DNA of 53,333 nt from a bacterium (GCA_043719155.1 JAYSUJ010000002.1:1-53333), one strand, 5' to 3'; positions 1,301-10,041 are shown, counted from the stretch's first letter. Translations and numbers: made by a program. Notes: a model not told the origin generated them from the sequence alone.

Positions 1301-1721
1301 AATTATAATTTGCAGGCTTTGAGGGATTCCGGAACTTGTGAGCTCCGGAAATTATTCATGTTTTTTGTTCACTAGTCTGAAGGGTTCGCCTTCAACTCGA
1401 TTTTCATCTCAATAAGTATATTAAGATGGAAAATTTTTCCATTTGCGCCGCCGAACCGAATCTTTTGCACGACGACTTTTGGGTTCCGTTCGAGTCCAGT
1501 AAAGCCATTGTAGTGAGGTATTACCCTAGCTACGGTTTGCTCTATCGTTTCTCCAATGTGTGTTTCAACCCACAACACCGGCCGGTGTACAGTTTGCAGA
1601 TGGGTTATGGGCGGGAAAGCGTCTGTTTGACGCATTTCACCGCAAATAATTTCCAAGCAGATTTCACTTATCATTGCCGGGGACCTCCTTCAAATCCCTC
1701 AAAGCCTACAAAATTATAATT
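1301..1721 (-). other. Stem-enclosed mini-gene cassette 1 (arms 1301-1328 and 1693-1721; hairpin 1327-1350)
   Basis: aattataatttgcaggctttgagggatt is the near-perfect reverse complement of aatccctcaaagcctacaaaattataatt. Confidence 0.85.
1372..1674 (-). CDS. Hypothetical cassette cargo protein (100 aa)
   Basis: ATG preceded by AAGGAGGT; fills the loop of cassette 1. Confidence 0.7.
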   Translation of the reverse strand: MISEICLEIICGEMRQTDAFPPITHLQTVHRPVLWVETHIGETIEQTVARVIPHYNGFTGLERNPKVVVQKIRFGGANGKIFHLNILIEMKIELKANPSD

Positions 1722-1738
1722 TCGTAACACCAGAGAAA

Positions 1739-1972
1739 CTATTTAGCTAAAACTACGTTTGAGATGTGTAGAGGGTTGGCTTTCTTTACGATAGTTCCCT
1801 TTTCACCATCTTTTTTCGCTTTAACATTTTTAGTTTTCAAGTTTATACCATCAACTAGAACTTGTTCTAGTTTTGGAAAAACTTGTAGTACTTTTCCTGT
1901 TTTACCTTTATCGGCTCCGGCTATTACTTTCACATTATCTCCTTTTTTAATCATATATTTTGGTTTGCTCAT
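1739..1972 (-). CDS. rplX: 50S ribosomal protein L24
   Basis: IKKGDNVKVIAGADKGKTGKV KOW motif, PLHISNV; ATG at 1972. Confidence 0.96.
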   Translation of the reverse strand: MSKPKYMIKKGDNVKVIAGADKGKTGKVLQVFPKLEQVLVDGINLKTKNVKAKKDGEKGTIVKKANPLHISNVVLAK

Positions 1973-1982
1973 TTTATTTTTC

Positions 1983-2401
1983 AATAATGAGTATCACCTA
2001 TTTGTTTACAATAATTACAATCTTTTTCAAGTAGCGAAGTTTTGATTTTAAACATCAAAACTTCGCTAGCACAACTTAAACTTAAAGAATACGCCGACTT
2101 ACAAAATAGAGATAGTACGGCGAGTAGAAACAGTGGAAACGGACAAATATCCCATGATTGAATGTTTTTTTCCAATCTTCGAAATATCGGTCTGCTCTCA
2201 TCTTCGCCTCTTCGTCATCCACTGCTTTGAAAATCTGCACTTTTTCAAGTGACCTTACAATGCCCAACCAATAATGCACATCAACACGCATACGTAATTC
2301 GTACAAATTAGTTGTTCCGTTAGCCATTTATATTCTCTCCTTCGGTTGTGTTGAAAAAAACTACAATTTGTTTTGTAAACAAATAGGTAACACACATTAT
2401 T
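1983..2401 (-). other. Stem-enclosed mini-gene cassette 2 (arms 1983-2030 and 2351-2401; 15-bp perfect hairpin 2032-2068)
   Basis: aataatgagtatcacctatttgtttacaa pairs with ttgtaaacaaataggtaacacacattatt. Confidence 0.85.
2082..2327 (-). CDS. Hypothetical cassette cargo protein (81 aa, FKAVDDEEA motif)
   Basis: AAGGAG SD before ATG; fills the loop of cassette 2. Confidence 0.75.
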   Translation of the reverse strand: MANGTTNLYELRMRVDVHYWLGIVRSLEKVQIFKAVDDEEAKMRADRYFEDWKKTFNHGIFVRFHCFYSPYYLYFVSRRIL

Positions 2402-2429
2402 TATTTTTAAAAGAACTATTTATTTTTAA

Positions 2430-2810
2430 TTATAGGACTTCAGGTGCTAGTGAAATAAGCTTTTGATACCCCAAACCTGCCAATTCTCTTGGTACTGGAC
2501 CAAAAATACGGTTAGCTCGAGGTTCTTTTGCTTGTTTACCTTTTCCGTTAATAATAACTACCGCGTTGTCAGAAAATGAAATGTATGAACCGTCAACTCT
2601 TCTAAAAGGTTTTTTGGTTCGCACAATCACTCCGTAAACTACGTCTTTTCTTTTTATCATCTTTCTTGGTTCAGCAACTTTAATAGACAACACTACCACG
2701 TCTCCTACATAAGCAGTTCTGTGGCGTGTACCTCCCAAAATTGTGAACACCCGACCATGCGTACCACCAGAGTTATCTGTGATAACCACGTTTGTTCCGA
2801 TTTTTATCAT
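2430..2810 (-). CDS. rplN: 50S ribosomal protein L14
   Basis: DNSGG, VGDVV, VIVRTKK, RRVDGSYISFSDNAVVII, RIFGPVPREL, ISLAPEVL. Confidence 0.98.
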   Translation of the reverse strand: MIKIGTNVVITDNSGGTHGRVFTILGGTRHRTAYVGDVVVLSIKVAEPRKMIKRKDVVYGVIVRTKKPFRRVDGSYISFSDNAVVIINGKGKQAKEPRANRIFGPVPRELAGLGYQKLISLAPEVL

Positions 2811-2846
2811 ATTTATTTTTAAATATTTACACTAGTTGCCCTCTTT

Positions 2847-2877
2847 CCTCTCCTTTGTAAGGAGAGGCTAGGTGAGG
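2847..2877. repeat. GC-rich REP-like palindrome cctctcctt-tgt-aaggagagg followed by ctaggtgagg
   Basis: Perfect 9-bp inverted repeat in an AT-rich spacer upstream of rplN. Confidence 0.55.
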
Positions 2878-7797: not shown

Positions 7798-7844
7798 TTT
7801 TGTCAAAGGAACAATTTGTTTTTTAGTTTATGAGACTTTTTGCT

Positions 7845-8507
7845 TTACGCAATTTTCTGTTCTAAGAATTTTGTCATATTTTCTACATCGACCATTACTA
7901 TGTAACGAGTGTTCATAACGTCTAATGCAGACGCCTGAGCAATTGTTTTTACGGTAACTTGTGGAATATTTCGAAACGCACGCAATAATGTTTCAGATTT
8001 TTCAGGGGTATAAATAACCATGTTCCCTGCTTTTCTGAAGGTAAGATTTTTAAAGTTCTCTACTTTTGACAAGTTTGTCAAAATAGATTCTGCTTCTTTT
8101 GTTTTTGGTTCGTTAAGAGTAATTTTGTCTACTAGTAAAATTTTACCAGAACGCAATTTGTCTGAAAGGACCATACAGAAAGCCAGACCACGAGATTTCT
8201 TGTTGATCTTTTTAGAATAATCTTTGTCCGAACGAGGACCGAAGGTAATACCACCACCACGCCAAATAGGTGAACGGATAGAGGCATGACGCGCTCTGTC
8301 CATTTCCTTTTGTGGCCAAGGCTTGATACCACCACCACGAACTTCGTTACGAGTTTTAGTATGGGCAAGTCCAGCTCTTTTGTTTGATTGTTGAGAAACG
8401 ATAACTTGGTGAACCAAGTCTTTGTTAAGCTTCAAACCAAACACAGACTCTGACAGAGTAACTTCCGCAGCTTCTTTACCTAATTGTGTATATTGTTTTG
8501 TTTTCAT
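7845..8507 (-). CDS. rplD: 50S ribosomal protein L4
   Basis: [43 protein letters not shown] 8507 (MKTKQY) preferred. Confidence 0.97.
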
Positions 8508-8533
8508 ATATTTTATTTTGCACAAAAGTATTT

Positions 8534-8942
8534 TATCAAGTACCACAATTTATTTAGAATGATTGTAAATTTTGTTAGAGGCACAAGCAATTTCATTTCT
8601 TACTTTCGCTTGTGCTAGGGTTTATTGTCTTAAACTCGAGAAGTGCTGATTGTAGTTGTTTCTACAATTTTTTGGAACTCTCCGAACTCGAGAAGTTTCG
8701 CGCCTATGTAGTTGGCACGTGCGTTTGAAATTATCTGGTTTTTATTCACAACAGCATCTTCATCAGATTCTGCTTTAAAAAAAACCATTCTTTCGTTCCA
8801 ATGTGGCTGATCACTGTCGTCATAGTTCCGCGTCGCAACTTGGTACAAGACTAAGTAAGTTTTCACTTTGCCTACTCCTTTTTTTGCTACCCCCAAGAAA
8901 ATTTACAATTTTATTTTTCTAAACAAATTGCGATACTCGATA
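8534..8942 (-). other. Stem-enclosed mini-gene cassette 6 (arms 8534-8573 and 8898-8942; hairpin 8581-8615)
   Basis: tatcaagtaccacaatttatttagaa pairs with ttctaaacaaattgcgatactcgata. Confidence 0.85.
8630..8866 (-). CDS. Hypothetical cassette cargo protein (78 aa, FFKAESDEDA motif)
   Basis: AAGGAG SD before GTG at 8866; fills the loop of cassette 6. Confidence 0.72.
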   Translation of the reverse strand: MKTYLVLYQVATRNYDDSDQPHWNERMVFFKAESDEDAVVNKNQIISNARANYIGAKLLEFGEFQKIVETTTISTSRV

Positions 8943-8968
8943 TTTACTTTTTAATGTGCTATTTCAAT

Positions 8969-9592
8969 TTAGTTAGAAACTATTTCTATTACCCCACCTG
9001 GTATACCTGGCACCGCACCCTTTACGAGCATAGTTTTAGTAACTGGGTCTATTGCTAATACTTTTAAATTTCGTACTGTTATTCTTTCTGTACCCATTCT
9101 TCCGGCCATTTTCATGCCTTTGACTACACGTCCTCCGGCACGCCCACCTCCACCGATAGATCCAGGCTCACGAAGAGCGTGATGCACATTGTGGATAGGA
9201 CCTTTACCTTTGAAACCATGTCGTTTTACAACACCTTGAAAACCTTTACCTTTAGAAATACCAGAGATAGTTACCGTGTCACCTTTTGCAAATTGGTCAA
9301 CACCTAGCACTTGTCCAACTGTAAAGCCAGTGATTTCAGCATCTGCTTTCGCAGCTCTGAACTCCATAACTTTTTGGAAAAGTCCTGCATATTGTTTTAC
9401 TTGAGGCTTGTTTACACGATGTCCTTTTTGCACTCCGTACCCTACTACCAATGCTGGATAACCATGTTTGTTCTTGTCTTTTATCTCAAGAACCGTCATT
9501 TCAGCGAATGATAAAATAGTTACTGCATGTGCCTCTGCGTTTTCATCAAAGTATTGAGTCATTCCTGACTTTTTTGCGAGCATTACTTTCAT
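8969..9592 (-). CDS. rplC: 50S ribosomal protein L3
   Basis: KSGMTQ, GISKGKGFQGVVKRHGF, REPGSIG, KGMKMAGRMG, VKGAVPG. Confidence 0.98.
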   Translation of the reverse strand: MKVMLAKKSGMTQYFDENAEAHAVTILSFAEMTVLEIKDKNKHGYPALVVGYGVQKGHRVNKPQVKQYAGLFQKVMEFRAAKADAEITGFTVGQVLGVDQFAKGDTVTISGISKGKGFQGVVKRHGFKGKGPIHNVHHALREPGSIGGGGRAGGRVVKGMKMAGRMGTERITVRNLKVLAIDPVTKTMLVKGAVPGIPGGVIEIVSN

Positions 9593-9668
9593 ATTTTTTC
9601 TTTTAAGAGGAATCTTTTTTGCATTTGAGATTCATTAACATTAATTTATTAATTTTTAAATTACTTTC

Positions 9669-10041
9669 TATCAAGTATCACATTTTGTTTATAACTTTTT
9701 ATTACAAATTATATTCTTTAAGAAGTGGGAGAGGTTCGACTCTCCCGAAGGTGTTCAGACCGACACTAGCCACGGCCAGTAGTAGCGGTAAAAAAGCCAG
9801 GTGACCAATGCACACGCAGCTAGAAAGTCAAAGAACATGACATAGTAGCCAAGAATATAGCCATATGGCCCGGACTTGAAACCTGTTAACCGCTCAGCAA
9901 TTTTAAAAAATATACTGAGACGGATAACCACAAAGGCTCCGTAGACAAAAATGATCAAGTTCATTGTTGACTCCTATTTTCCTGTTTGGTTTGCCTTCTT
10001 AAAGAATACAATTTGTTGTAAACAAAATGTGATACTCGATA
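9669..10041 (-). other. Stem-enclosed mini-gene cassette 7 (arms 9669-9725 and 9995-10041; hairpin 9727-9746)
   Basis: tatcaagtatcacattttgttta...tattctttaagaag pairs with cttcttaaagaata...taaacaaaatgtgatactcgata. Confidence 0.87.
9755..9964 (-). CDS. Hypothetical two-TM membrane cassette cargo protein (69 aa)
   Basis: AGGAG SD; two hydrophobic stretches; fills the loop of cassette 7. Confidence 0.72.
   Translation of the reverse strand: MNLIIFVYGAFVVIRLSIFFKIAERLTGFKSGPYGYILGYYVMFFDFLAACALVTWLFYRYYWPWLVSV

Follow-up and report, generated by a model that had tools for sequence, protein, structure and literature searches.

The window analysed here, a complete 53,333-nucleotide stretch of DNA from an uncultured bacterium, is the whole of contig C2 in a metagenome-derived genome bin of 42 contigs (G000; 987,443 bases, ~36% G+C). 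Its S10-spc ribosomal protein (r-protein) operon occupies the minus strand from tuf to rplE and then rpsL, and seven of the spacers in this operon measure 420-790 nucleotides (nt), versus the usual few tens. These spacers contain eight minus-strand cassettes (A to H), each closed by a stem and each enclosing a small open reading frame (ORF); cassettes E and F are in tandem between rpsQ and rplN. The best explanation, and one we consider moderately probable, is that they are lineage-specific insertions in r-protein operon spacers that are processed by RNase III. Covariation between the cassette ends shows that selection keeps an RNA helix on the mRNA-sense strand and not merely a DNA repeat. 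Comparison with related genomes shows that these insertions are specific to the lineage and that, at fixed spacer positions, cassettes are acquired, lost or exchanged for others.

In a repeat scan, every window cassette corresponds to one inverted-repeat pair or more, with arms of 18-46 nt that are 74-95% complementary (Table 1). The sense strand presents the same order in all eight: a 5' arm, a purine-rich box resembling a Shine-Dalgarno (SD) sequence, an ORF of 23-100 codons, a GC-rich hairpin and a 3' arm. The full inserted unit also includes a short leader before the 5' arm and a short AT-rich trailer up to the start of the next gene, and the cassettes themselves are 236-424 nt long. A terminator scan classifies none of the eight 3' hairpins as terminator-like, and the sole minus-strand terminator-like site within a window cassette is weak and lies inside the ORF of cassette D (6789-6768). 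Consensus scans detect no enrichment of promoters or terminators (25 promoter-like sites versus 28.8 expected, and 10 terminator-like sites versus 8.6), and a reading of the ORFs at positions 1-12000 revealed no transposase or integrase. A first-pass annotation had proposed eight such cassettes in the same seven spacers, two of them in tandem between rpsQ and rplN, with a common mRNA-sense layout, an ORF of 23-100 amino acids, a GC-rich hairpin lacking a U-tract and no adjacent transposase or integrase, and all of these features are borne out.

A conserved outermost motif with the consensus ATATCGAGTATCAC, together with its complement, is common to six of the eight window cassettes, E and H being the exceptions. 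When up to three mismatches are allowed, this motif has 16 matches in the window versus 2.25 expected, and eight of the 16 are arms. The shared outer motif therefore indicates that the arms are homologous and not merely analogous. Cassettes E and H share an inner G-rich segment, as judged by eye. The position of the SD-like box places the likely starts of the ORFs in cassettes B, E and F inside the longest possible frames, at GTG 8866, ATG 3540 and ATG 3096, respectively.

The first-pass annotation had also suggested that the rest of the genome be searched. A genome-wide repeat scan and a motif search reveal four more cassettes, all on contig C25, for a total of twelve in the genome (A to L). 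One of these, cassette L, ends ~95 nt upstream of the start of 23S rRNA (C25:25202), and therefore resides in the 23S leader rather than in the rRNA. No Rfam family corresponds to the cassettes or to the interior of cassette L. All twelve cassettes, and all eleven of the ORFs they carry, are co-directional with their host operons. An arm model made of 20 arms from ten cassettes (E and H were left out) finds 19 matches in the whole genome, all of which are its own arms (E<=4e-4), and the next match is at E 0.065. A G:U-aware repeat scan of the genome lists 17 loci, in which ten rows represent nine cassettes; the other long inverted repeats (on C4, C7, C11, C17, C30, C34 and C36) were rejected as coding regions or as members of another repeat family. 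Within this 0.99-Mb genome, no cassette is found outside r-protein operons and the 23S leader. The leaders of cassettes B, F, I and K carry a TGCACATTAA-type word. In the same four cassettes, a TTGCAC-like hexamer is present 17 nt before GAGTAT or TAGTAT in the leader and outer arm, which we regard as a lead only.

Arm-to-arm alignment of the twelve cassettes gives 441 Watson-Crick pairs, 46 G:U pairs in the sense orientation, 4 of the antisense type (A:C), 14 transversions and 33 gap columns. The proportion of sense G:U pairs (46 of 50) has a binomial P of 4.5e-10 for p = 0.5, and of 1.6e-6 for p = 0.62, which is the sense-strand T/G skew at four-fold degenerate sites. Arms also score higher with their own partners than with the arms of other cassettes in 15 of 15 cases (12 in G000 and three in a related contig, L034, described below), with mean scores of 50.7 and 21.8. 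In an alignment of the ten motif-bearing cassettes, 424 of 507 cognate cells (83.6%) are canonical pairs, versus a mean of 66.1% (sd 1.1, maximum 69.3) when partners are swapped 2000 times, and double-sided, compensatory changes occur in 33 of 49 columns; since the copies compared are paralogues from a single genome, together with one relative, these counts reflect co-variation between partners and not independent events. Both the preferential match of each arm to its own partner and the maintenance of pairing during sequence divergence had been proposed by the first-pass annotation, and the alignments bear out the former and strongly support the latter.

Folding each cassette, as that annotation had also advised, places the closing helix in the minimum free energy (MFE) structure of all twelve, with 27-46 long-range pairs. 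Fold energies are -98 to -147 kcal/mol, and z-scores range from -7.4 to -10.9 relative to 60 dinucleotide shuffles per cassette. The sense fold is more stable than the antisense fold in every case, by a margin of 6 to 47 kcal/mol.

Among 41 relatives searched, L3 was matched in 36. The S10/L3 and L3/L4 gaps are at most ~175 nt in most of the loci fetched, although S10 is out of reach in a few, and four bins of the same genus (G001-G004) have no L3. The S8/L6, S5/L15 and L10/L12 spacers, which are ~460-500 nt in G000, are short in these bins: S8/L6 and S5/L15 in G001-G003, and L10/L12 in G001-G004, range from a few to ~47 nt by our own count. Outside G000, cassettes are found in one related metagenome contig, L034, whose r-proteins are 60-96% identical to those of the window and whose gene order is equal, including rpsL after rplE. 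In this contig, cassettes that end in the same motif occur at L3/L4, L23/L2 and S17/L14. However, its L4/L23 spacer (the site of cassette C) is empty at ~20 nt, its L14/L24 site (cassette G) is empty with a slight overlap, and cassette E has no counterpart in it. The site of cassette C is also empty in L035. The L24/L5 site of L034 contains an ORF of 78 codons, with no evident arms around it. At the sites of cassettes B, D and F, G000 and L034 can be aligned over the flanks and the outermost ~20 nt of the arms, but not over the inner arms and the ORFs. Moreover, the 5' arm of the L034 S17/L14 cassette is closest to the L3/L4 arm of G000, with a score of 61 versus 28 for the arm at the same site. 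When cargo at the same positions in relatives is compared, as had been recommended, same-genus sites are therefore empty, and those of L034 are partly empty or differently filled.

Comparison of filled with empty sites indicates that the inserted unit exceeds the arms, and that its AT-rich trailer supplies the context of the next start codon. No clear target-site duplication is apparent in these comparisons; a high AT content and low complexity mark the spacers, and a flanking TA is inseparable from the first pairs of the stem. Gain, loss and replacement at fixed positions imply that the cassettes also behave as exchangeable or mobile DNA. The arm model finds nothing convincing in 95 other genomes of the family, giving two single weak hits, and with filters off it finds nothing in the loci of the same genus, where the best score is 13.5 bits. 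A degenerate 18-nt arm pattern yields single matches per locus only, both among the matches listed for genome contigs and in viral contigs; paired hits occur in none of 80 genome loci tested and are confined to L034. A blastn search of phages and plasmids with cassette A returned no match, and DNA contigs from four runs of one study include no junction that skips a cassette. A look-up of sequencing runs for positions 1300-10041 lists none of RNA.

In more distant relatives, whose L4 proteins are 43-51% identical, insertions of 0.3-2.2 kb are present at S10/L3 and L2/S19 (L044 at ~6143-7281, L054 at ~9954-10994, and the L2/S19 gaps of L037, L045 and L059). Some of these large gaps hold ordinary-looking genes that, by sequence appearance alone, are DgkA-like, NUDIX-like and SGNH-like. 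Two of the insertions are flanked by unrelated inverted repeats, of 28 nt around ~900 nt (L044) and of 19 nt around an ORF of 145 amino acids (L054). Stem-flanked insertions in r-protein operons may thus extend beyond this family.

Eleven of the twelve cassettes carry an ORF of 23-100 codons, and cassette L has none that is convincing. The products of cassettes A, C and F are hydrophobic peptides, while the other eight are soluble-looking and 65-100 amino acids long; all three stem-flanked ORFs of L034 encode short hydrophobic peptides. Among ten cargo proteins, none matches a Pfam family above the cut-off, although that of cassette B has a weak, sub-threshold similarity to DUF4288, and no cargo protein has a match above threshold in PHROGs or PADLOC. 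An all-against-all BLASTP comparison detects no kinship among the cargo proteins (best E 0.041). The cargo of cassette B finds only itself among 5.8 billion proteins, that of cassette H only itself among 1.84 billion representatives, and a protein search with that of cassette G also returned only itself. A tblastn match of cargo C in L060 falls on a membrane segment in a large ORF that is not related, and was taken as chance. In all eleven cases, the annotated frame outscores the other five frames by host codon usage, with more G+C at first than at second codon positions (GC1>GC2), as in real genes. The G+C content at third positions (GC3) is 0.26-0.54 for cargo versus 0.31 for host ORFs. We take the cargo ORFs to be real, but young, foreign or constrained by structure.

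All eleven cargo ORFs are preceded, 3-10 nt before the start, by an SD-like box (AGGAG, AAGGA, GGAGG or GAGGT). In contrast, an SD-like 4-mer is present in front of only 45 of 743 long host ORFs (6.1%), whose upstream regions are A/T-rich with T at position -1 in 67%. The words most enriched in the 35 nt upstream of host starts resemble -10 elements (TATAC, ATAAT and TATAA), which suggests that many mRNAs of this organism are leaderless or have short leaders. The G000 assembly contains no 16S rRNA. In two same-genus genomes, one family member and one member of the order (L338 of G002, L339 of G004, L337 of G005 and L340 of G027), the 3' end of 16S rRNA lacks CCUCC and has an A/U-rich tail after helix 45. 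Loss of the anti-SD sequence is known for part of the Parcubacteria, according to a previous report (PMC9297842). The cassettes therefore present a paradox, in that orphan mini-genes are led by strong SD-like boxes, although SD sequences have been lost from the genes of the lineage and anti-SD sequences from the 16S rRNAs of its relatives.

The two arms pair in the operon transcript to form a closing helix of 27-46 pairs, which, if the cassettes are RNase III-processed insertions, would serve as the substrate of this enzyme. The cassette would then be cut from the polycistronic RNA much as rRNA intervening sequences are, or as pre-rRNA is at its processing stems. Such excision would insulate the essential operon from the insertion, and would release a mini-mRNA with paired termini in which the GC-rich hairpin beside the 3' arm could block 3' exonucleases; the r-protein cistrons would become separated. 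The genome has an intact RNase III gene of 240 codons, with a nuclease domain (140.7 bits) and a double-stranded RNA-binding domain (60.2 bits).

Several points weigh against this explanation. We infer cleavage, the RNA ends and the fate of the excised RNA by analogy with known systems, and cutting the stem would leave the upstream r-protein mRNA piece without an obvious protective hairpin at its 3' end. Gain, loss and replacement need a DNA-level mechanism that is outside this explanation. The outermost ~13 bp are more conserved in sequence than pairing requires, and such conserved ends look like the protein-recognised terminal repeats of a mobile element. A moderate skew of the sense strand at four-fold degenerate sites (T/(A+T) 0.59, G/(G+C) 0.63) accounts for part of the G:U excess. 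With respect to cargo, none of four proteins tested has a homologue, only the queries themselves being found in large protein collections, and codon scores are under the host mean in eight of eleven cases. Translation of the cargo is doubtful, because SD sequences are rare in the host and the 16S rRNAs of the four relatives lack CCUCC.

The conserved ends raise the possibility that the inverted repeats are the DNA-level termini of a non-autonomous mobile or recombining cassette, similar to a MITE (miniature inverted-repeat transposable element) or to the single-stranded DNA hairpins of integron attC sites or IS200/IS605-type elements, that is moved by an enzyme encoded elsewhere. RNA pairing would then be a by-product or a form of harm reduction. 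We judge this to be unlikely, but it is not exclusive of RNase III processing, since cassettes could not be gained, lost and replaced without some DNA mechanism. The first-pass annotation had put forward a cassette element targeting highly expressed operons as its own alternative, and the absence of the insertions from the corresponding spacers of same-genus genomes, their absence or different filling in L034, and their confinement in G000 to r-protein operons and the 23S leader support that proposal without excluding processing. Mobile ends would account for the presence/absence polymorphism at identical spacer positions, the non-orthologous interiors within orthologous flanks, and the similarity of the L034 S17/L14 5' arm to the arm of a different site in G000 (61 versus 28). 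They would also fit the concentration of conservation in the terminal ~13 bp and the promoterless orphan ORFs, which recall integron cassettes. The excess of sense over antisense wobbles (46 versus 4) is not expected for double-stranded terminal repeats, although a folded single DNA strand would likewise tolerate G:T on one strand only. The copies are diverged, none is dispersed beyond the r-protein operons and the 23S leader, and filled and empty sites reveal no clear target-site duplication. Similarly, DNA contigs of the four runs lack cassette-skipping junctions, and the 95 other genomes of the family lack hits to the arm model, apart from the two weak ones. As for a possible enzyme, the genome has one tyrosine recombinase, one Y1 (HUH) transposase-like gene and one reverse transcriptase (Table 1), but no DDE_3 transposase. 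No recombinase adjoins any cassette, the GC-rich palindromes around the Y1 gene are its own and unrelated to the cassette ends, and we found no link of these three genes to the cassettes, none being near one.

The stems might also remain uncut and act as structural insulators. In this case, the cassette would be looped out so that the upstream stop codon is near the downstream start, thus keeping coupling, folding or autoregulation intact and gating the enclosed ORF. This is improbable, although the geometry is suitable: in the cassettes read, the base of the stem is 17-48 nt past the upstream stop and ~25-100 nt before the next start, and native spacers are comparable, at a few to ~47 nt. Selection for pairing on the sense strand, and the AT-rich trailer ending in a host-type start context that every cassette brings, also suit this possibility. 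However, a near-perfect helix of at least 40 pairs far exceeds what insulation needs, and is a classic substrate of RNase III, which the genome encodes. Ribosomes on the upstream gene would stop short of the stem, which leaves nothing to unfold it for the enclosed ORF. Furthermore, the organism seems to use AT-rich or leaderless starts rather than coupling signals, given that -10-like 5-mers are the most enriched words.

The stems might constitute a dedicated RNA-level expression platform, although this idea is speculative and has little probability in our estimation. Docking stems in the most transcribed operons would capture exchangeable orphan mini-genes, RNase III would free mini-mRNAs that have paired termini and are possibly circularised, and the ORFs behind the SD-like boxes would be translated in a way that differs from the cell's own initiation, which lacks an anti-SD. 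One possibility for such a route is a lineage-specific contact of the conserved 5' arm motif with the 3' tail of 16S rRNA. In G002, the ten tail bases TACTCAATAT are complementary at 10 of 10 positions to the cassette 5' arm motif ATATTGAGTA. G004 has a different tail, and G-containing words complementary to the tail show no enrichment in front of host genes (ratios 0.65-1.55). We treat the match as a lead only. The 16S processing stems of relatives have sequences unrelated to the cassette arms. A second possibility is that the SD-dependent ribosomes of a host cell read the ORFs, if the bacterium is an episymbiont.

It is far less plausible that the cassettes are modules resembling type I toxins or other small peptides, with mRNAs kept inert by pairing of their 5' and 3' ends until processed, and with the operon serving only as a source of transcription. 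Long-range 5'-3' locking is known for hok-type mRNAs, and strong SD-like boxes are present beside heavy structure in the cassettes. Short hydrophobic peptides account for three of the eleven cargo products in G000 (A, C and F) and for all three of the stem-flanked products in L034, but the other eight in G000 are soluble-looking proteins of 65-100 amino acids. In addition, no antisense RNA gene or promoter signal is evident (25 promoter-like sites versus 28.8 expected), no PADLOC or Pfam family is matched, and cassette L has no convincing ORF. Finally, an artefact of assembly or binning, such as chimeric joins or collapsed repeats, has next to no probability, as it is outweighed by the architecture of L034 and by Logan contigs of DNA runs, in which four overlapping pieces from X1 and X2 span 70-10653 with 0 differences, and low-depth pieces from X3 and X4 span parts of cassettes G, D, C and B, also with 0 differences.

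Among known systems, the closest analogue of the cassettes is the intervening sequence (IVS) of bacterial 23S or 16S rRNA. The IVS in the 23S rRNA of Coxiella burnetii, as described in its report (PMC4990558), is 428 nt long with a 28-bp terminal stem and an ORF in its loop, is cut by RNase III midway along that stem, has a fold energy of -143 kcal/mol, and is termed a selfish element of unknown mobility. On this description, the cassettes are similar in size (236-424 nt), in having terminal inverted repeats that form a long stem (27-46 pairs), in carrying one small ORF in the loop, in residing in a very highly expressed transcript, and in fold energy (-98 to -147 kcal/mol). An IVS replaces a tetraloop within mature rRNA and is excised by RNase III without religation, whereas eleven of the twelve cassettes are located between protein genes and one is in the 23S leader. 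The first-pass annotation's statement that no system with this architecture had been described therefore holds in part: the IVS shares the anatomy of the cassettes, but it lies in rRNA and not in the spacers of an mRNA. Cassette cargo also does not belong to the S23p family that some IVS encode (ten proteins have no Pfam match), the cassettes occur as twelve diverged copies in one genome, and their excision by RNase III is only presumed.

Correia elements (CREE) of Neisseria are roughly 100-150 bp in length and non-coding, and are present in many near-identical copies throughout the genome, with TA duplications. The cassettes resemble CREE and other MITEs in their terminal inverted repeats and in that their presence differs between related genomes. 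CREE are also co-transcribed intergenic inverted repeats that RNase III can bind, cleave or protect, according to one study (PMC2649163). Unlike CREE, the cassettes carry an ORF (11 of 12), are diverged, are confined to r-protein operons and the 23S leader, and have no clear duplication. Searches with four protein families, and of phage and plasmid collections, found no autonomous element or transposase with cassette ends.

In integron cassettes, the ORFs are small, lack promoters and are orphans for the most part; an imperfect palindrome comes after each, expression is from an upstream host promoter, and the content varies between close relatives. Orphan promoterless cargo, a palindrome and content that varies between relatives are also features of the cassettes described here. 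However, their palindrome encloses the ORF, and they are interleaved with essential genes instead of being arrayed. There is no integrase match in the window operon or on C25, nor any attI beside the cassettes. The GC-rich hairpins after the cargo ORFs have no common motif by eye, and no attC core motifs were seen in them.

Intercistronic RNase III sites are found in phage T7. In pre-rRNA (PMC6582327), long-range complementary flanks of 16S and 23S that are cut by RNase III enclose a functional RNA within a polycistronic precursor, separate the units and leave their ends paired, all of which is similar to the proposed organisation of the cassettes. Unlike these stems, the cassettes enclose a small protein-coding ORF within an mRNA operon. 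Neither engineered paired-termini RNAs nor the hok-type mRNAs of toxin-antitoxin systems are situated between r-protein cistrons, as the cassettes are. Both are otherwise comparable, in that flanking inverted repeats provide double-stranded termini that stabilise or silence the RNA; the paired-termini design is described in PMC1635301. Full-text searches, which leave most subscription journals outside, returned no report of such elements in r-protein operons.

Should RNase III process the stems, the cassettes would represent, within the literature searched, the first IVS-type element of mRNA operons rather than rRNA. They would also show how a genome of ~1 Mb puts up with, and may even profit from, insertions in the operons that it most needs and most transcribes, namely by having them cut or looped out as RNA. 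Because they approximately double the S10-spc marker region and vary between close relatives, the cassettes affect phylogenomics, binning and annotation. Natural mini-mRNAs with paired termini could inform designs for stabilising RNA.

Table 1. Cassettes, cargo ORFs, flanking genes and candidate mobility genes (window coordinates unless a contig is given; percentages are arm complementarity)
Feature	Location	Coordinates	Strand	Details
Cassette A	rpsJ/rplC	9666..10044	minus	arms 10015-10041/9669-9695 (27 nt, 93%) and 9995-10022/9698-9725 (28 nt, 89%); MFE -135.9, z -8.4, 45 long-range pairs
Cassette A ORF		9755..9964	minus	69 aa, hydrophobic, two membrane stretches predicted by eye; AGGAG 6 nt before ATG
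Cassette A GC hairpin		~9727-9746
Cassette B	rplC/rplD	8531..8945	minus	outer motif 8930-8943/8533-8546; inner arms 8890-8909/8562-8581; z -8.69, 44 long-range pairs
Cassette B ORF		8630..8866	minus	78 aa from GTG 8866; longest ORF reaches 8896; orphan
Cassette C	rplD/rplW	7461..7798	minus	arms 7769-7793/7466-7490 and 7750-7767/7491-7508; z -9.55, 46 pairs
Cassette C ORF		7559..7732	minus	57 aa, one hydrophobic stretch
Cassette D	rplW/rplB	6628..6993	minus	arms 6965-6990/6631-6656 and 6945-6974/6645-6674; z -9.16, 43 pairs
Cassette D ORF		6725..6922	minus	65 aa, soluble
Cassette E	rpsQ/rplN, first of tandem	3210..3597	minus	arms 3561-3591/3216-3246 (31 nt, 90%); z -10.7, 27 pairs; without outer motif
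Cassette E ORF		3286..3540	minus	84 aa from ATG 3540
Cassette F	rpsQ/rplN, second of tandem	2946..3181	minus	arms 3141-3186/2941-2986 (46 nt, 74%); z -10.9, 42 pairs
Cassette F ORF		3025..3096	minus	23 aa, hydrophobic peptide; AGGAG 9 nt before ATG
Cassette G	rplN/rplX	1982..2405	minus	arms 2373-2412/1972-2011 (40 nt, 80%); z -9.51, 46 pairs
Cassette G ORF		2082..2327	minus	81 aa, orphan
Cassette H	rplX/rplE	1300..1722	minus	arms 1693-1712/1309-1328 (20 nt, 95%), to ~30 nt with one bulge; z -7.44, 30 pairs; without outer motif
Cassette H ORF		1372..1674	minus	100 aa, orphan; GGAGG 9 nt before ATG
C25 cassette	rpsH/rplF	C25:756-1158
C25 cassette	rpsE/rplO	C25:2903-3325
C25 cassette	rplJ/rplL	C25:16951-17361
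C25 cassette L	23S rRNA leader	C25:24816-25109		GC-rich structured interior, no convincing ORF
tuf		10584-11777	minus
rpsJ		10060-10479	minus
rplC		8969-9592	minus
rplD		7845-8507	minus
rplW		7018-7425	minus
rplB		5721-6581	minus	followed in order by rpsS, rplV and rpsC
rplP		3881-4309	minus
rpsQ		3601-3867	minus
rplN		2430-2810	minus
rplX		1739-1984	minus
rplE		650-1219	minus
Y1 (HUH) transposase-like gene		G000:C37:2964-3626		220 aa; GC-rich palindromes on flanks
Reverse-transcriptase gene		G000:C32:7913-8515
Tyrosine-recombinase gene		G000:C38:26688-27155		only Phage_integrase-family match in the genome

The S10-spc segment is closed after rplE by rpsL (S12), at 185-604 on the minus strand, and a terminator-like hairpin is present behind rpsL. 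The same order of rplE and rpsL recurs in L034 (6955-7365), and the placement of rpsL is therefore not a misassembly. ORF reading of the two loci finds neither rpmC between rplP and rpsQ nor rpmD (L30) between rpsE and rplO. Together with the small genome and the anti-SD loss in relatives, this lack of L30 is the ground on which the phylum of the organism was inferred. The tuf/rpsJ spacer (10501-10579) is filled by a hairpin whose 39-nt arms are 72% complementary and separated by 1 nt; it encloses nothing, does not match the cassette arm model, and may be an S10 leader structure. Upstream of tuf is an ORF of 796 codons, which is preceded by one of 2906 codons (14900-23620, minus strand) and, further upstream, by one of 1251 codons.

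A separate GC-rich repeat of ~37 nt with an internal palindrome has at least 20 copies in the genome at up to six mismatches. One copy, at 2845-2881 on the plus strand of the window, falls within the cassette F trailer, has no equivalent in L034, and explains a bump in sequencing depth at 2801-3200. At C34:4715-5135, two perfect inverted copies of this repeat surround an ORF of ~110 codons, and a similar GC-rich inverted repeat on C7 brackets a stretch that can be read as part of an 854-codon ORF.

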